Positions 37,317-47,711 of a stretch of 64,000 nt of DNA are shown here, piece after piece. Below the pieces are notes generated by a model. It was not told where the DNA came from, did not search any database, and worked only from the letters and a program-made list of their open reading frames with translations. Made by a program: the position numbers and the translations under genes. Positions within the stretch are counted from its first letter, which is position 1; each line of letters opens with the position of its first letter. The DNA is from a phage: the NCBI GenBank assembly GCA_018093385.1, contig GCA_018093385.1_4808.1. The stretch is one strand, 5' to 3'.

Positions 37317-37961
37317 ATGATTAATGCAAACGTAATATCTAAAGGGACCGGATGCAGCATGGATGTTGCTGAAAAATGGGTCGACCCCTTCAAGCAGGCT
37401 TGTGAGCACTACGGAATCAAAAGCAAGAATGCCATCGCGGCGCTGCTTGCAAACGTAGGAGTGGAAACAGGCAGTCTGAAGACCTTTGTGGAAAACCTGA
37501 ATTATTCCGCTCAAGGTCTTGCTAATACGTGGCCTAGCCGTTACAGCGCCAGCGGTCGTTTCGGTGGCGCACCAAACTCCTTGGCATTGTCGATTGCCCG
37601 TAAACCAATGGAAATCGCCAATAATACATATGCAAACCGAATGGGAAATGGTTCGGTAGCATCTGGCGACGGTTGGAAGTACCGTGGCCGTGGTGCCATT
37701 CAGCTGACTGGAAAGGACAACTATGCAGAGTATTCAAAGCAATCAGGGTATGACGCATTGAATAACCCTGACATTTTGACTGAGCCGAAATACATTGCTG
37801 ACAGCGCGGCATGGTTCTTCAAGAACAGCGGTTGCATTCCACTTGCCGATGCGGGCGCATTTGATTCGACCGTGAAGCGGATTAACGGGGCCGCGCCAAA
37901 TACGGCTAACCATGGGGATTTGCGACGGAAGCGTTACAAGGGAGCACTAGCAGTTATGTAA
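37317..37961 (+). CDS. Endolysin, glycoside hydrolase family 19-like
   Basis: GWKYRGRGAIQLTGKDNY resembles the GH19 core; AAGGTGA SD. Confidence 0.65.
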   Translation: MINANVISKGTGCSMDVAEKWVDPFKQACEHYGIKSKNAIAALLANVGVETGSLKTFVENLNYSAQGLANTWPSRYSASGRFGGAPNSLALSIARKPMEIANNTYANRMGNGSVASGDGWKYRGRGAIQLTGKDNYAEYSKQSGYDALNNPDILTEPKYIADSAAWFFKNSGCIPLADAGAFDSTVKRINGAAPNTANHGDLRRKRYKGALAVM

Positions 37962-37962
37962 G

Positions 37963-37993
37963 AAAAAGGCCCATATGGGCCTTTGTTTATTTT
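37963..37993. terminator. Bidirectional rho-independent terminator (AAAGGCCC-ATAT-GGGCCTTT, T-run after)
   Basis: Perfect palindrome between convergent genes. Confidence 0.75.
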
Positions 37994-38217
37994 ACGGCTT
38001 CAACCTGGACGGGCGGCGCGGAACTTGTATCAATGTCTGGCAAGTCGAAGTAATACCCCGCCATGCCAATCACGCCAACAATCGCGGCCCGTGCCACCTT
38101 GTTGCTAATTGACTCCCCAATAAGCTTTACCAACAGGGACAAGATTTGAGACGTCAAAGCCTTTTTCAGCCTTTTGTTTTCTTCCAAATCTTTCTGCATA
38201 ACTACCACCCATGTCAA
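37987..38217 (-). CDS. Small hypothetical protein with short hydrophobic segment
   Basis: 76 aa. Confidence 0.4.
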   Translation of the reverse strand: MTWVVVMQKDLEENKRLKKALTSQILSLLVKLIGESISNKVARAAIVGVIGMAGYYFDLPDIDTSSAPPVQVEAVK

Positions 38218-38756
38218 CGCACATCCTGTGTCTTAACATTACCTGAAGCATCTCTTAAGGGCAGTGGATAGTAGGCCATTTGGTAGTCTGATACGCCTTC
38301 AACATGATAAAACACGATTACGTCTTTGCTGTTGATGAGCATGTTAACGACATCTGATTTATCTTCTGGAGTGAGTATGAGTGCGCCGCCTGTCCTGCTG
38401 TCTACTGCAACAGGGTATGTCTTGTCGACAAGGCCGCTGTCCAATGTATTATACCTGACAACGATTTCAGGGGCATCAACTTTTGCAATTGACATTCCGA
38501 ACACAAACGACACGACTTGGCGACCGCGATCATTCATTACGCACATCTTTTCCTTGTCAAACCTTTCCTTTATCACATCGTATTTGTTCCAGCAAAATTC
38601 GAACGATTGACCGTTGTTAAAATATCTCGTTAACACTTTGGCATTACTATTTGGCGGCGTAAACATACTTTCAGCCGCTGCACTTTTGGTGAAGAACAAA
38701 ACTGTCAGCATAGCCATGATGATGATCAAAACGATCTTTAAATTTTTCGATTTCAT
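38214..38756 (-). CDS. Secreted protein (signal peptide)
   Basis: Lys-rich start then hydrophobic core ending AAA; AAAGGTG SD. Confidence 0.5.
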   Translation of the reverse strand: MKSKNLKIVLIIIMAMLTVLFFTKSAAAESMFTPPNSNAKVLTRYFNNGQSFEFCWNKYDVIKERFDKEKMCVMNDRGRQVVSFVFGMSIAKVDAPEIVVRYNTLDSGLVDKTYPVAVDSRTGGALILTPEDKSDVVNMLINSKDVIVFYHVEGVSDYQMAYYPLPLRDASGNVKTQDVR

Positions 38757-38932: not shown

Positions 38933-39910
38933 TTAAAAATACTCCATATCGGTAATATCACGGAAGCATTTATACAAAGCAGAGCGCGGCACATCAACAA
39001 TGCCAAAGTTAAAGAATTTATACGTTAGATATTTATCGCGATAGTTCTCGCGATTCTCCCAAAGCATTTTTCTCTCTGCCATAGGCATTGAACCAGCGGA
39101 TACGCGGAAAGGAATCATCTCACCTTTTTCATCCACATATTTTGGATTGACGACTACGAATGAGCCAAGGTGTCCTTTCGCAACTAAACCTTCAGCCTCT
39201 TTTGAACGCTTGGTGCGACCCAATTCGTCAATGAATGCTTCGTTGTTGTTCTCCATCATCTCAACGAAGTCTATGATCAATCCTTCTTCATCGGTCCACG
39301 GCTTGTCCTTCCACACATCACGTGACTTCGGCGTCGCGCGGCCATGCTTGTATTTGCCCGTCCAAGACTTGCCATACAAGCCTTCATATCCAAGCTGGTC
39401 TGCTTCGATTTGCATCGCCGCGTACTGTTCCATATTTTCGATGTTTCGATATTCGAGAGCGCGAAGGAATGGGCGTCGACCATGGTTGATGAGATGTTGA
39501 TTAACTTCAGCAACTCTAGCTCGATAGTTTGCATAACGCTTTTCAAAAGGCAGATCAGGTTCGCTAAAGTCATCAAACACCCACCATGTAAAGTTAGTGA
39601 TTGCATCAGTGTTCATGCATGCAGTATAGGCCTGTTGCATGACGTTCTTGTCATTTGGATTGCCGTCGATTAGCTCTCCATCAAGTCCGTGAATTAATTC
39701 ACCCAAGAAGAGGAACTCTTTTTTGATTTGAATGTTGCGCAGCGCCATGCCGGACGTGCCCATTGGCAAGTTGTCATACGCCATTGCGCGTATGCCATCG
39801 ACCTTGAATGACAATCCGCAAGGCAGCGGCACGTCTTCGCCGCGCTCGATTATTTGCTTACGCTGGCAACCCTTCATTGGTTTTAATGCTTTGATTTCTC
39901 CTGCCATCAC
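38933..39910 (-). CDS. ATP-dependent DNA ligase
   Basis: Nucleotidyltransferase motif I KVDGIR; AAGGAG SD. Confidence 0.7.
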   Translation of the reverse strand: MMAGEIKALKPMKGCQRKQIIERGEDVPLPCGLSFKVDGIRAMAYDNLPMGTSGMALRNIQIKKEFLFLGELIHGLDGELIDGNPNDKNVMQQAYTACMNTDAITNFTWWVFDDFSEPDLPFEKRYANYRARVAEVNQHLINHGRRPFLRALEYRNIENMEQYAAMQIEADQLGYEGLYGKSWTGKYKHGRATPKSRDVWKDKPWTDEEGLIIDFVEMMENNNEAFIDELGRTKRSKEAEGLVAKGHLGSFVVVNPKYVDEKGEMIPFRVSAGSMPMAERKMLWENRENYRDKYLTYKFFNFGIVDVPRSALYKCFRDITDMEYF

Positions 39911-40500
39911 TCAAACTCCTTATTCATCACTTGTTCCAGCGCATAGGCGTAAGCCTGATCAGTCGATTTGATAAACGTGCCGTTGTACATGACGCCTTTG
40001 CGGTCTTTGATGTCTTCGTAGGCAGCTTGCGCACAGTCGGATAAGCGAAGGCCATAATCATGAGCTACGCCGGAAAGGTAATCGACTGCGGCCATGATGG
40101 TGACGTCAATATCCATGGTTTGATTCTTGGCAATAGCATCACCAAGTCGTCCAAGGGTCTTTGCCAGGCGAAGGATAAATGAATGAGGGTGAGCGCCTTT
40201 ATCAGCGCAACCGCCGCCATTAATGTTTTCGATTTCAGCACCGTTTTGCGCTGCCAGGATGGTCAACACGACAAGGCAATCGCCAATGTCGTCCTTAATT
40301 GCGGCTTGCAAGTCACAGATGGCCTGCTCTGTATATCCAATTTCGGGGTCGAAGAACACAAGGTCATGGAGTTGATCAACGTGGTCGGTCAACTCCCCAA
40401 ACTCGCTGATAAGCTTCGGGTATTGGTCCTTAAGGTCGCAACCTTGGATGATGTTACGGTCAGAAGCCCACTGGCGAATGTTTGCATAAATCTGGTTCAT
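39907..40500 (-). CDS. MazG-like nucleoside triphosphate pyrophosphohydrolase (putative)
   Basis: EFGELTDHV...DIGDCLVVLTILA and RLAKTLGRLGD segments resemble MazG helices. Confidence 0.45.
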   Translation of the reverse strand: MNQIYANIRQWASDRNIIQGCDLKDQYPKLISEFGELTDHVDQLHDLVFFDPEIGYTEQAICDLQAAIKDDIGDCLVVLTILAAQNGAEIENINGGGCADKGAHPHSFILRLAKTLGRLGDAIAKNQTMDIDVTIMAAVDYLSGVAHDYGLRLSDCAQAAYEDIKDRKGVMYNGTFIKSTDQAYAYALEQVMNKEFE

Positions 40501-41015
40501 TTATTTTCCTTTGATGCATTGAATTGATCGATTTTTATTTTAGCCTGATTATAAGTATCAATCAAGCTATTAACTTTCTCTTTTAATCGGCTTGTTTCTG
40601 CGGCGAACTGAACAAGAAATCTGACATCTCCTTCTGATAGTCCACAGTTTCCTTCTGGGATAGAGAGGCGTCCAGTGGTCGCAGAGTCGGGCATACTCCT
40701 GAGTAACTCACGGGAGCAGCTGAGTTGCGCGCGCAGCTTGATATTCCCAGACTTGTAACGAGCAATAGTGTCATCAGCAACCAGTTGCGCTTCCTGGCGA
40801 CCTTTCTCATATGCCGATGCCGATTCAACCTGTAAAGATGCAATTTGCTCTTCGAGTGCATTTATCTTGTCCTTACGCTCATTCAGCGATGTCAGATATT
40901 GGTTATCCTTGGCCAGTGATGCGTTGGTTTGCTGCAGGTCTTCAACGTATGATCCAGCGGCAAACGCGCCAACAAGGGCCAGAATCTTCAGGAGCGGTAC
41001 AATTCTTTCTATCAT
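40497..41015 (-). CDS. Rz: i-spanin (Rz-like)
   Basis: N-terminal TM, coiled-coil body, C-terminal resemblance to lambda Rz. Confidence 0.6.
   Translation of the reverse strand: MIERIVPLLKILALVGAFAAGSYVEDLQQTNASLAKDNQYLTSLNERKDKINALEEQIASLQVESASAYEKGRQEAQLVADDTIARYKSGNIKLRAQLSCSRELLRSMPDSATTGRLSIPEGNCGLSEGDVRFLVQFAAETSRLKEKVNSLIDTYNQAKIKIDQFNASKENK
40583..40861 (-). CDS. Rz1: o-spanin (Rz1-like lipoprotein) embedded in +1 frame inside Rz; start uncertain (40861, 40810 or 40774)
   Basis: Basic n-region, hydrophobic LLMTLLLVTSLGI, lipobox-like ISSC, Pro-containing mature part with second Cys. Confidence 0.5.
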   Translation of the reverse strand: MHSKSKLHLYRLNRHRHMRKVARKRNWLLMTLLLVTSLGISSCARNSAAPVSYSGVCPTLRPLDASLSQKETVDYQKEMSDFLFSSPQKQAD

Positions 41016-41024
41016 GATGCACCA

Positions 41025-41056
41025 GATAAATAAAAGGCCGCCAATCGGCAGCCTTG
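41025..41056 (-). terminator. Rho-independent terminator (imperfect GC stem plus U-run on minus strand)
   Basis: AAGGCTGCC-loop-GGCGGCCTT then TTTATTTAT on minus strand. Confidence 0.5.
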
Positions 41057-41072
41057 TTGATTTGATTGTCGA

Positions 41073-41933
41073 TTAAAACTCTTCTGCGTCGGCAGGAGTT
41101 TCATTGACAGGACCAGCGGCACCGCTTGCTTCTTCCTGCTTGCTGCGGTCGATGTTAACGTTGCCGCCCACTACGTCATTGTGGAATGCCTTGGCGACTT
41201 CGTACAGACCTTTGTCCTGCACCAGACCTTCCAGCTCAAACTTCAGAACGGACCAGGTGTTGCCGTCTTTGGACTGGGATGCAGTACCCATGCGAACGAT
41301 GTTCATAAAGGTCGGCGGCGTTTTCAAACCTTGCGGAGTTTGAACTTTCTTCTGCTGCAGCGCGGTCATCAGCATACGAGACGGCTTGATCATCGAAGAA
41401 GTCAAAGACAGCATGGCGCTGCCAAATTCACCCGTTTCTTCGTTCAACAGAATCACGAAGTGGTTACGTGTATCTGCATAGTAAGGAGATTTCTTCTCGT
41501 GCACTTTGCCGTTTTCGTCCGGCACAAATACCTTACCGTTGATCTCAACAGCGCGGCCTGCCGCGACTTCTGCATCAACGTGCTCTTTGGTGAATTCACC
41601 TTTAAAGCCTTTGTCGTCGGACTCGCGACCGCCCCAAAGAATGAAGGTACGTTTGAATGCGCAAGGGATGATCTGCACGCCTTTCTTACCGTCATACAAC
41701 TCACCAGTAACGGTGTTGTAAAGCATGCCAGCTTTTGCGCCAGGAACGTGTTTTGGATCATCTTCGTCGACCATAGGAGACATCTTCTGCAGTACGACGA
41801 TAAAAGGAATGGCATATGCATCGGCATCGGCACCTTCAAAACCAGCGCCAAAATCGGTCATGTCGACAAAATCAGCCATAGCGGACATCTGGGTGTTTTT
41901 CACTGCAACTTCGGTAGTTTCTTTCTTAGACAT
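41073..41933 (-). CDS. Putative ssDNA-binding/recombination protein with acidic C-terminal tail
   Basis: C-terminus ETPADAEEF (acidic, terminal Phe, as in SSB and T7 gp2.5 tails); replication-module context. Confidence 0.35.
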   Translation of the reverse strand: MSKKETTEVAVKNTQMSAMADFVDMTDFGAGFEGADADAYAIPFIVVLQKMSPMVDEDDPKHVPGAKAGMLYNTVTGELYDGKKGVQIIPCAFKRTFILWGGRESDDKGFKGEFTKEHVDAEVAAGRAVEINGKVFVPDENGKVHEKKSPYYADTRNHFVILLNEETGEFGSAMLSLTSSMIKPSRMLMTALQQKKVQTPQGLKTPPTFMNIVRMGTASQSKDGNTWSVLKFELEGLVQDKGLYEVAKAFHNDVVGGNVNIDRSKQEEASGAAGPVNETPADAEEF

Positions 41934-41992
41934 TTGATATTTTCCTATAGTATCAAGTTTCGTGGCAACCTGATTTCAAGATAAAGGTTAAA

Positions 41993-42550
41993 TTACTTTT
42001 TGCTTTTAGGCAAGGTTATTTTAGCTTCTTTGTATTCAAAAACGCTAATATCTTCACTAACTGGATTGCCTGCTTCCAGCTGTTCTTTTACAAATGACTT
42101 CAGTGTAGCAGAATGAACGCCTTGTTTCAATGTGGCTTCAACACCATCTTCACGCAGCGCGGCAACAATCTCTTGCGCCTGTTCGATTTCTTCGCGACCG
42201 AACTCAGCCGTGACGCTGGACTTGATCAGGCCGCCGTAACCGTTGTTGACAAGCCAATCGAAAACTTTTAATTCGTTTTCTTTCTTGATCGAAGCATTCA
42301 CCTTGGACTCGACCTTGATTTTGGTCTTGTCCTCAAGCTTGATCTCAGACACGCCAAGCTCATCCATAACGCCAGGAAGCAGAACAGTTTTGATTTCACT
42401 GATTCGCTGCTTTTGCATATCAGCTTCATCTTCAAGCTCTGTCAAAGCTTCTTGGCGTTCTGCCAGTTCAGATACTAAGCGCGCAAGGCGCTCTTGAATG
42501 CTCTCAGGAGCGACCTGCGGCAAATCATCTTCCCAATTAATATTGCTCAT
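41993..42550 (-). CDS. Hypothetical coiled-coil protein
   Basis: 185 aa, GAAGG SD. Confidence 0.45.
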   Translation of the reverse strand: MSNINWEDDLPQVAPESIQERLARLVSELAERQEALTELEDEADMQKQRISEIKTVLLPGVMDELGVSEIKLEDKTKIKVESKVNASIKKENELKVFDWLVNNGYGGLIKSSVTAEFGREEIEQAQEIVAALREDGVEATLKQGVHSATLKSFVKEQLEAGNPVSEDISVFEYKEAKITLPKSKK

Positions 42551-44827: not shown

Positions 44828-47711
44828 CTGGATACACCTGTTTGATCACGTCAACGATGAACATATCAATGCCTTCAAGCTTGCGACCTTTCATCAGGAA
44901 GAATGCGCCGTTCCCGACGTTTTCAGCGATGTACTTCCCGTACTTCTGGAACTTCTCTGGACGAATCCTGAAGCGCATTGGCGAGTCGGTCGAGTCGTCT
45001 TTGCACATAAGGTCGATGAACTGAGTCTCAAGCTTGTTCCCGTACTGGTCAAACTCTGCGTAGCGGCCATCAGCTTGAAGACCCTTTTTAAGCTTGCCGT
45101 GCTTTGTATAGATGCCGCGCTCAAGTCGTTTACGGATGCGTGTTGCTTCGTTCTCGTCCGCAAGCACTTTCTTTGTCAACTTGCCGATTACTATTGCGCG
45201 CTCGTCATCACCGACTTCCTTCATCTGGCGTATTGAAGCGCCGGACGTCACACCAATCAGATACGGGTCATTATACGCCCAGCCGAACTTTGTGTGCATC
45301 TCTGTAAGGTCGCCGTATTTTACTTCAGCATTGGCCAATGCGTCCTTTTGCTTCTGCGTTAAGGTTCCGGCTTCACGCGCTTCGATATACTTCATCGCTT
45401 TCACCATGCCGTACCCTTTCGCATTCATGATGCCGCCGATTAGCTTTCCGTTCGCGATGGTCCAGTTCATTGAAGAGTGATCAGGGTCGATTGGCACATA
45501 ATCCACACCTTCCTTCGCAAGTTCACGTAATATCGCAATCGTCTGGTCTTCGTCCTTAGCAGCGCGTAAGCAGGCTGCGGCAAATTCCAACGGGTAGTGT
45601 CGCTTAAGCCACAAGGTCCAGTAGGTCACGACCGCGTATGACACGGAGTGTGACTTGTTAAAGCCCCATGACCCGAACGTGGCCATCGCTTGCCAAAGCT
45701 TTCTTGCATCCGCTTCCGGTACGCCGTTATTGATTGCGCCTGCAACAAAGTCCTCGCCAAGCTTGTTAAAGTATTCTTCACCCTTACGGCCTGACATCGC
45801 CTTACGCACAGCTGACGTTTTCGCCCAGTCAAATGAACCAATCTCTTTAACCACGGCCATGATTTGCTCTTGGTAAAGAAACACGCCGTAAGTCTCTTTC
45901 AAGTACGGCTCAAGCTGCGGCACGTCGTACTCAATCGGCGCACGTCCTGCCGCGCGTTCAATGTATTTCTGGGCCATACCGGATGACAACGGGCCAGGTC
46001 GACCCAAAGCTGTCAGGTTGTCGATTTTGTTAAAGTTGTCGACGTGCACAAAGTTTGTTACTGAGCGTACAGCATCACCTTCAAACTGGAAGATGCCTGA
46101 CATCTTGTTTTCGTTAAGAATGTCAAGGACGCTTTGATCATCAAGTTTGATTCCGTAGAGCGTTTCAGCATCAATAACGCCTGTATCAGAAATAATGCCG
46201 AGAGTACGAAGGCCCAGCGCATCAAGCTTCAAAAGGTTGAGGTATTCACTGTCAGGCTTATCGATTTGCGCAATCCCTTCTGCAGTTACAGTACAGTAAT
46301 CAGAGATTGGGTCATTACACACAATGATGCCCGCTGCGTGAACACCTGTGTGAGACGGGTGAATCTCAAGGTCACCCATGCAACGCGCGGCGTCAGGATA
46401 TTTCGCCACGAACTCTTGGCCCGTGGTCGTTGTTGCAAAGGTATCCTCCAGGCCGTGACCATAACGGGCGTCACCGGATGAGTATTCAAGCAATGCGTTT
46501 TTAATGTTGGCCGTTTCGTGGTATCCAATGTTGAACTTCTTACCAACCTGCGCCATTACTGAGTTGGCCTTAAGAGTGTTGATGTTGCCAAGCTTCGCAA
46601 CGTTCATTTCGCCGTATTTCTCTTTAAGATAATCAAACACCATATAGCGTTTGGTATCTTCAAAGTCGATGTCGATGTCAGGAAGGTCGGCGCGGCTTAC
46701 GTCGATGAATCGGGCAAACAGCAGCTTATACGGGATTGGGTCCACTTCCGTGATGCCGAGGCAATAGCAAACAAGTGAACCGGCCGATGAGCCGCGAGCA
46801 GGACCGACGAGCATTTTTGTTTTTGCGAATCGTACAAGGTCCGCTACTACCAGAAAGTATGAGTCGAAATCTTTCAGCTGAATCTGGTGAATTTCTTCGT
46901 TGAAGCGGTCCTCGTATTCCTGAGTCCATTCTTTGATGTGACCTGCTTTTAGACGGTACTCCATGCCCTCGCGAGCAAGCTTTACCATGTCACCAGCAAG
47001 TTGAATAATCGGTGCCTTACGCAATTTCAGGTCAAGTCCGACTATGCCGTTTGCTATGTCAACAGCATTGGCCGTTGCCTGATTGAGCTCGTCTTCAGTC
47101 AAGATGCCTTTAAGCTGTTTGCGCAAGTCTTCCGAGTCAACGATGCAGTGCGGCTTGACCGTGTCGCGCACTTCCCAAGCATAAGCGAAGTCAACGTGCT
47201 CAGGAGAAGGCATGTGATTGTATCCGGTTAAAACCAGCGGCCTTCCGTTGCTGCGGTGAGCCAACACCTGGCGCTTAGCCAAAAGGAACGACGATGGGTT
47301 GACGTCTATATAGTCGTAGTCCTCTGGCCGCAGCAGCTCCACGGCACCGCCACAGAATTTAACGACGCCATCAAGCGCACCGAACTCTGCACGGGTAAGC
47401 CCACCGCGCTGCGTTGAAAGTGTTGTAGCGTTGTAAAAAGATTTTAAGTCAAGGGCCAATATCCAAGCCTTCGGTTTGAATCCCTTTTTAGGGTCCGCAT
47501 CAGGGTCGATGATTGGAATCTCCATTCCAAACATAGGCTTAATATCATTTTTCTGGCATTCCTTTTCCCAGCGAACGTGACCCCATGTGTTGTTATCAAC
47601 TAATGCCGCGACTTCGCAGCCCAACTCTTTGAGCCGTGCTATAATTTCAGGATGCCGTCCATAAACTTCTTTGAACGTGTAACCGCTGCGAACTCTCAAT
47701 TGTGGAAACAT
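44814..47711 (-). CDS. dnaE: DNA polymerase III alpha subunit-like replicative polymerase (DnaE-like, PHP domain)
   Basis: 965 aa; PHP-like N-terminus, DIDIDFED segment, polymerase core. Confidence 0.75.
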   Translation of the reverse strand: MFPQLRVRSGYTFKEVYGRHPEIIARLKELGCEVAALVDNNTWGHVRWEKECQKNDIKPMFGMEIPIIDPDADPKKGFKPKAWILALDLKSFYNATTLSTQRGGLTRAEFGALDGVVKFCGGAVELLRPEDYDYIDVNPSSFLLAKRQVLAHRSNGRPLVLTGYNHMPSPEHVDFAYAWEVRDTVKPHCIVDSEDLRKQLKGILTEDELNQATANAVDIANGIVGLDLKLRKAPIIQLAGDMVKLAREGMEYRLKAGHIKEWTQEYEDRFNEEIHQIQLKDFDSYFLVVADLVRFAKTKMLVGPARGSSAGSLVCYCLGITEVDPIPYKLLFARFIDVSRADLPDIDIDFEDTKRYMVFDYLKEKYGEMNVAKLGNINTLKANSVMAQVGKKFNIGYHETANIKNALLEYSSGDARYGHGLEDTFATTTTGQEFVAKYPDAARCMGDLEIHPSHTGVHAAGIIVCNDPISDYCTVTAEGIAQIDKPDSEYLNLLKLDALGLRTLGIISDTGVIDAETLYGIKLDDQSVLDILNENKMSGIFQFEGDAVRSVTNFVHVDNFNKIDNLTALGRPGPLSSGMAQKYIERAAGRAPIEYDVPQLEPYLKETYGVFLYQEQIMAVVKEIGSFDWAKTSAVRKAMSGRKGEEYFNKLGEDFVAGAINNGVPEADARKLWQAMATFGSWGFNKSHSVSYAVVTYWTLWLKRHYPLEFAAACLRAAKDEDQTIAILRELAKEGVDYVPIDPDHSSMNWTIANGKLIGGIMNAKGYGMVKAMKYIEAREAGTLTQKQKDALANAEVKYGDLTEMHTKFGWAYNDPYLIGVTSGASIRQMKEVGDDERAIVIGKLTKKVLADENEATRIRKRLERGIYTKHGKLKKGLQADGRYAEFDQYGNKLETQFIDLMCKDDSTDSPMRFRIRPEKFQKYGKYIAENVGNGAFFLMKGRKLEGIDMFIVDVIKQVYPDGNK

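Follow-up and report, generated by a model that had tools for sequence, protein, structure and literature searches.

A predicted two-component spanin with an embedded o-spanin gene in the replication module of a Wifcevirus Escherichia coli myophage

The Rz-like gene and the frame nested within it

The window, a 64,000-nucleotide stretch of phage DNA (contig GCA_018093385.1_4808.1 of GenBank assembly GCA_018093385.1), is that of a Wifcevirus (ECML-117-like) myophage of Escherichia coli. The 3.7-kb stretch around the gene pair described here shares 94-98% nucleotide identity with 29 Wifcevirus myophages of E. coli and Shigella, among them WFC, WFH, FEC19, ECML-117, Mansfield and Bas98-101, and the hosts of the relatives, E. 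coli or Shigella, bear out the Gram-negative host that the initial annotation, made from the letters alone, had proposed. The same annotation had recognised both members of the pair (Table 1), an Rz-like gene and, in its +1 frame, an ORF for a lipoprotein-like peptide with a lipobox-like ISSC, and both are found as it described them; it gave no strand, and its coordinates 40497-41015 coincide exactly with an ORF on the minus strand.

Table 1. Coordinates of the features at the spanin locus and of the endolysin gene
Feature	Position	Strand	Remarks
Endolysin (GH19/chitinase-like)	37317..37961	+	phrog_181 endolysin, E=5e-69; annotated as endolysin in relatives
ATGA overlap, Rz stop / MazG-like start	40497..40500	-	MazG-like gene at 39907..40500
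i-spanin (Rz-like) gene, 172 aa	40497..41015	-	ATG-to-stop ORF; phrog_1327 'Rz-like spanin'
Single N-terminal transmembrane helix of i-spanin, codons 5-23	40947..41003	-	IVPLLKILALVGAFAAGSY; Kyte-Doolittle
Nested ORF, 92 codons, +1 frame of Rz	40861..40583	-	MHSKSKLHLYRLNRHRH-MRKVARKRNWLL-MTLLLVTSLGISS/CARNSAAPVSYSGVCPTLRPLDASLSQKETVDYQKEMSDFLFSSPQKQAD
AAGGA Shine-Dalgarno-like motif	40870..40874	-	8 nt upstream of ATG 40861
Possible 17-codon N-terminal extension of o-spanin, from ATG 40861	40811..40861	-	longest ORF, 92 aa; annotated start in Mansfield and Bas98-101
o-spanin (Rz1-like), 75 aa	40583..40810	-	start giving canonical lipoprotein signal; +1 frame
TGC codon of lipid-modified Cys, +1 of mature o-spanin	40733..40735	-	preceded by lipobox I-S-S
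Mature o-spanin, 50 aa	40586..40735	-	further Cys (GVCP); motifs CPxLPPLD..ETVDYQ..MSxFLF
Intrinsic-terminator-like hairpin and T-run	41024..41055 (hairpin 41055..41034)	-	between Pam3_Gp34-like gene and Rz start

The outer gene belongs to the Rz-like i-spanin sequence family (PHROG 1327; PY54-type), whose profile it matches nearly end to end (E=4.1e-25), residues 6-160 being aligned to positions 9-156 of the 158 in the profile. A tblastn search with the protein finds Rz of phage PY54 (2e-13) as well as CPT-annotated i-spanins, and the gene is labelled as an i-spanin or Rz-like spanin in Mansfield, Bas98-101 and the RefSeq records of WFC, WFH, FEC19 and ECML-117. No spanin or Rz family in Pfam, the lambda-type Rz family included, matches it at E<=0.1, and the sole match, to GvpL_GvpF at E=0.085, was judged to be due to chance. 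Scans of both spanin proteins against NCBIfam and Pfam gave no relevant model, and a PDB profile search with Rz returned only chance coiled-coil matches (E>0.1) and no relative of solved structure. Kyte-Doolittle hydropathy reaches its 19-residue maximum (1.80) at Rz residues 5-23, the next best value past residue 30 being 0.35, and a second hydrophobic segment is absent, leaving the single N-terminal transmembrane domain (TMD) expected of an i-spanin. An AlphaFold2 model built from six sequences (mean pLDDT 78) consists of a helix at residues 5-106, a linker of lower confidence at 107-127 and a second helix at 128-171; C100 and C124, predicted to be periplasmic, do not vary among six sequences.

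Three ATG codons, at 40861, 40810 and 40774, lie in frame in the nested ORF. From the second of these, the o-spanin spans Rz codons 69-145 of 172 (0.39-0.83 of the length L of the i-spanin gene), and from the upstream one it begins at codon 52. In either case it lies wholly inside the i-spanin gene, which is the classical embedded arrangement claimed at the outset, where the o-spanin gene occupies another frame and typically extends from about 0.4-0.5 L to 0.9-1 L. A hydrophobic stretch in the nested product is followed by the lipobox ISS/C, conforming to the o-spanin pattern [LVI][ASTVI][GAS]C with a residue other than Asp at position +2, here Ala. By the Lol rule a non-Asp +2 residue directs a lipoprotein to the outer membrane, and sorting of the o-spanin to that membrane is therefore expected. 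The lipoprotein signal was assessed with a script implementing PROSITE PS51257, {DERK}(6)-[LIVMFWSTAG](2)-[LIVMFYSTAGCQ]-[AGS]-C, a rule which also demands Cys at position 15-35 and K/R within the first seven residues. The protein read from ATG 40810 passes (MRKVARKRNWLLMTLLLVTSLGISSC, Cys at position 26, K/R in the first 7 residues), so the signal whose absence from every candidate start would have spoken against the annotation is present; that read from ATG 40861 fails on length alone (Cys at position 43), and those read from ATG 40774 or TTG 40780 fail on length and charge (Cys at position 14-16).

The mature region is Pro-containing, as had been noted, only modestly so (4 of 50 residues, 8%), and is not Pro-rich. 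Its GVCP Cys is kept in 7/7 sequences, and both subunits would thus carry periplasmic Cys, a feature of spanins for which intermolecular disulfides are known from lambda. Searched alone, the 75-aa o-spanin gives weak PHROG matches (E 0.025-0.07). The Wifcevirus o-spanin ends four residues earlier (...KQAD*, 40583-40597 (-)) than those of the relatives L008-L011 and of Pantoea phage LIET2 (...KQTGSEIK*, ...GTDSATK*); since the length of the C-terminus differs among o-spanins, its extreme end appears to be dispensable.

Genomic setting of the pair

A lysis cassette is the usual, not the defining, location of spanin genes, and the present pair is not in one: it is placed in a replication/nucleotide-metabolism module, between a Pam3_Gp34-like gene and the MazG-like and ligase genes. 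Two proteins of unknown function are encoded upstream, at 41073-42550 (-): one is Pam3_Gp34-like (PF23977, E=4e-86), the other DUF7307/Pam3 gp33-like (PF23984, E=3e-37). Their synteny is conserved in all relatives. The contigs of four further lineages have the gene order seen here (helicase, DUF7307, Pam3_Gp34-like, Rz, MazG-like, ligase), and a scattered layout, with spanins away from the endolysin, is kept wherever the contig of a relative is long enough to show it. The terminator-like hairpin, which precedes the Rz start codon by only about 10 nt, has a 9-bp stem with 6 GC pairs followed by TTATTT; its position is kept in 5/5 lineages, with some sequence change, and a terminator between the Pam3_Gp34-like gene and Rz is annotated in WFC and Mansfield. 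A scan for sigma-70 promoters from the terminator to the Rz start gave nothing convincing. With a terminator upstream of Rz, expression of the Rz/Rz1-MazG-ligase genes would have to depend either on read-through or on a promoter that escaped recognition. At its other end the Rz gene overlaps the MazG-like gene, and thus the lysis gene pair would be translationally coupled to nucleotide-metabolism genes (a MazG-like pyrophosphatase). The AAATGA junction of the two genes is also found in L008-L011; in WFC-type genomes the junction reads TAGATG instead of the ATGA overlap. An ATP-dependent DNA ligase gene abuts the MazG-like gene on its downstream side.

The presumed lysis partner of the spanin pair is the endolysin, whose gene ends a convergent late operon 2.5 kb from the pair and on the opposite strand. 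The endolysin has no N-terminal hydrophobic segment (neither SAR nor signal segment) and should therefore need a canonical holin; no holin was identified, and the annotations of the relatives list none either. Nearby are two small convergent genes with no assigned function. The first, at 37987-38199 (-), encodes 70 aa with one hydrophobic stretch, AAIVGVIGMAGYYF, and matches phrog_5165, of unknown function; its product is a possible holin candidate. The second, at 38214-38756 (-), encodes 180 aa with an N-terminal signal-like segment and has no family match.

A setting of this kind, within a replication/nucleotide-metabolism operon with translational coupling to MazG through ATGA, behind a conserved terminator, away from the endolysin and with synteny kept in all relatives, would also suit proteins of spanin-like build that serve another envelope function, for example superinfection exclusion or an early change in the envelope. 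We consider such a role very unlikely, because the pair is homologous to Rz/Rz1 of PY54, which sits in a classical holin-endolysin-Rz cassette, because no other spanin candidate is annotated in related genomes and a Gram-negative phage with a soluble endolysin needs one, and because pseT.3/pseT.2 of T4 provide a precedent for spanins apart from the other lysis genes (Kongari 2018). A role of the pair as spanins in lysis is thus the preferred reading.

Coding constraint and start codons of the nested frame

A nested lipoprotein ORF is present in every relative examined, at Rz identities of 97%, 55-66% and about 28-31%. The database search yielded four further lineages with i-spanin identities of 55-66%, and in 4/4 of them the nested ORF has a lipobox (AISGC, AISSC, ATSSC) and a closely similar mature domain. 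More distant homologues with an embedded +1 lipoprotein gene (about 28-45% identity) are PY54, LIET2 and the IMG/VR contig L021, and their o-spanins have in common the motifs CPxxPPxD...ET(V/A)D(Y/F)Q...MSxFLF; the o-spanin of L021 retains MRNFLFDSPQKQ. The mature-domain motifs were taken from an alignment of seven o-spanins including those of PY54 and LIET2. Scans of viral and metagenome contigs, with the single protein as well as with an alignment (A1), revealed no further intermediate lineages and returned only near-identical Wifcevirus contigs plus two distant ones, L021 and L007. The latter, at 31% Rz identity, likewise carries a lipobox in a +1 ORF, although the mature region encoded there looks dissimilar. 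The same nucleotides encode, in two frames, the conserved Rz motif DVxFLVxFAAE and the Rz1 motif MSxFLFxSxQKQ in PY54 (L014), LIET2 (L013) and L021.

In a +1 overlap each third position of Rz is a second position of Rz1. Across five lineages, the third base is invariant in 35 of the 77 Rz codons of the overlap counted from ATG 40810 to the Rz1 stop, with a pairwise third-position divergence of 0.27. In the non-overlapping 5' and 3' flanks of Rz the invariant fraction falls to 8/71 codons and the divergence is 0.60 (5') and 0.48 (3'); overlap and non-overlap differ in third-base invariance with Fisher p=4e-6. The 17 codons from ATG 40861 to ATG 40810 (2 invariant, divergence 0.53) behave as non-overlap (p=1.0 versus non-overlap, p=0.0125 versus overlap). 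Since the synonymous sites of Rz are frozen over the overlap, they carry the mark of purifying selection acting on the nested product, and at the level of sequence these comparisons confirm that the nested ORF is real and under a second coding constraint.

The comparative tests, and not simulation, are the main evidence for this. When the Rz protein was recoded synonymously 5000 times, an alternative-frame ORF passing PS51257 arose in only 2.0% of cases and one of at least 75 aa in 17%, figures that make for a lenient, or moderately stringent, null, because the Rz sequence fixes two thirds of the bases of each Rz1 codon and the Rz protein itself co-evolved with the nested gene. These frequencies, together with the lack of a strong database family for the o-spanin, are what could be said for the nested ORF being a non-functional by-product of Rz, only the Rz-like protein being made, which is the least credible of the alternatives and next to impossible to reconcile with an ORF, a lipobox Cys and mature-domain motifs that persist at only about 28-66% Rz identity and with a freezing of Rz synonymous sites over exactly the nested stretch, for which only a second coding constraint accounts.

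The start of the o-spanin had been called ambiguous, and public annotation is indeed split, between the 75-aa form in SpaninDB and the 92-aa form, with its ribosome binding site, in the GenBank records of Mansfield and Bas98-101. Both ATG 40861 and ATG 40810 are kept in the five lineages on which the start-codon evidence rests. For ATG 40861, AAGGA stands 8 nt upstream in 5/5 lineages, Rz Lys48 is encoded by AAG in 5/5 lineages, as against 46% AAG among the Lys codons of the large genes of the window, and CPT marks the ribosome binding site of Mansfield at this AAGGA. Moreover, the ATG is kept in 5/5 lineages while Rz codon 52 reads AAT, TAT, CAT, GAT and AAT (N, Y, H, D, N): the codon drifts through its first base only, the next codon begins with G, and the AT-G of the +1 ATG is left untouched. 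For ATG 40810 there is the canonical 25-aa lipoprotein signal geometry, the onset at this codon of the protein-level constraint on Rz synonymous sites, and the short signals of PY54 and LIET2, each closely preceded by a stop codon; no Shine-Dalgarno motif is recognisable before this ATG in the five lineages. The peptide between the two ATGs has no conserved sequence, and the stop-free stretch separating them has a chance probability of 0.41-0.87 per lineage and is hence uninformative. A sequence-tolerant extension of the n-region leaves no footprint at synonymous sites, and therefore the evidence for the one ATG does not conflict with that for the other. The starts at ATG 40774 and TTG 40780 were rejected: neither offers a charged n-region or passes PS51257, Cys would stand at position 14-16, and L008 and L009 do not conserve them.

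All starts would lead, after cleavage by signal peptidase II, to the same 50-aa mature lipoprotein, and the choice between ATG 40861 and ATG 40810 is probably inconsequential. A conserved dual start, in which ATG 40861 (with Shine-Dalgarno) gives a long, highly basic signal of 42 residues and ATG 40810 (without one) the canonical signal of 25 residues, strikes us as unlikely. If it did exist, the two precursors could differ in the rate or timing of export and so tune the availability of the outer-membrane subunit, loosely like the dual start of lambda S107/S105, and the extension would have been gained by the Wifcevirus-like lineage, as PY54 and LIET2 are without it.

Proposed role and comparison with known spanins

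Judged by the criteria for spanins of Summer 2007 and Kongari 2018, the gene pair is in all likelihood (a probability of about 0.93) a two-component spanin of embedded, lambda Rz/Rz1-type architecture. The i-spanin would be anchored in the inner membrane by its one N-terminal helix, with a helix, a linker and a second helix in the periplasm, and the nested prolipoprotein, once cleaved and lipidated at its Cys, would be sorted to the outer membrane, where it forms a 50-aa o-spanin. As an analogy with lambda suggests, the C-terminal regions of the two subunits could bind each other across the periplasm; with the peptidoglycan removed by holin and endolysin, the complex would then fuse or disrupt the outer membrane and so release the progeny. 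It is from this analogy that we infer the localisation of the proteins, the formation of the complex and of disulfide-linked dimers, and the role in lysis. We found no experimental report on this phage group in the literature, and lysis genes are not treated in either the Mansfield genome announcement or the BASEL paper.

Beyond correct annotation the pair probably matters little, and it would confirm that the phage possesses the step of outer-membrane disruption to be expected where the host is Gram-negative. In several public Wifcevirus records one or both spanin genes are still labelled 'hypothetical'. What the present analysis adds is small: a quantitative test of dual coding, the homology of the ECML-117 and PY54 'singletons', and a summary of the start-codon evidence. 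Lysis specialists may find some interest in the contrast between the Shine-Dalgarno-backed ATG 40861 and the signal-canonical ATG 40810, and in the conserved placement of the spanins behind a terminator and coupled to MazG in a replication module.

The spanin pair is already known, the same pair in ECML-117 having been catalogued in 2018 as an embedded two-component spanin each of whose subunits forms a singleton family (Kongari et al. 2018, PMC6139136). According to the supplement of that study (PMC6139136), the ECML-117 i-spanin has two periplasmic Cys and 172 aa, of which SpaninDB assigns 24 to the TMD and 148 to the periplasm, and the o-spanin (CDS 45462..45689, 75 aa, relative position 0.395-0.834 L) has the signal MRRVARKRNWLLMTLLLVTSLGISS and a mature part CASNS... 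of 50 aa with one periplasmic Cys. The i-spanin of the window is 97.7% identical to that of ECML-117. For ECML-117, Mansfield and Bas98-101 as a group the i-spanin identity is 97-98%, and the nested ORF, the lipobox GISS/C, the 50-aa mature o-spanin and the neighbourhood are the same; only point substitutions differ, for example mature CARNS here versus CASNS. Both subunits are annotated in the GenBank records of Mansfield (2019) and Bas98-101 (2025).

The Yersinia phage PY54 (Rz/Rz1, ORF63) and the Pantoea phage LIET2 (gp065) have homologous i-spanins, with 29.5% identity over 85% of the query and 45% identity over the overlap region, respectively, and homologous o-spanins in the +1 frame with the motifs CPxxPPxD..ETADYQ..MSxFLF. 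They differ in that their o-spanin signals are short, with Cys preceded by 19 and 14 residues, and lack a long open extension at the N-terminus, and the PY54 pair, unlike that of the window, sits in a holin-endolysin-Rz cassette. Although PY54 and ECML-117 were assigned to separate singleton families (Kongari 2018, PMC6139136), their spanins are clearly homologous in both subunits. The embedded o-spanin carries no annotation in the RefSeq records of PY54 and LIET2.

Rz of lambda is laid out as a TMD, a helical domain, a linker and a second helical domain, and the model of Rz from the window matches this layout. Lambda, too, has Rz1 nested within Rz in the +1 frame, at about 0.4-0.85 of the length of the Rz gene; its o-spanin is likewise a small lipoprotein of the outer membrane, and periplasmic Cys occur in both subunits. 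However, the mature o-spanin has 50 aa and 4 Pro here versus 40 aa and 10 Pro in lambda (Kongari 2018, PMC6139136). Also unlike lambda, Rz of the window has no Pfam-level match to the lambda-type Rz family, and no holin or endolysin gene flanks the pair. In T4, the genes of the two-component spanin, pseT.3/pseT.2, likewise stand apart from the holin and endolysin genes, but they are separate, not embedded, and no sequence similarity was seen between them and the pair of the window.
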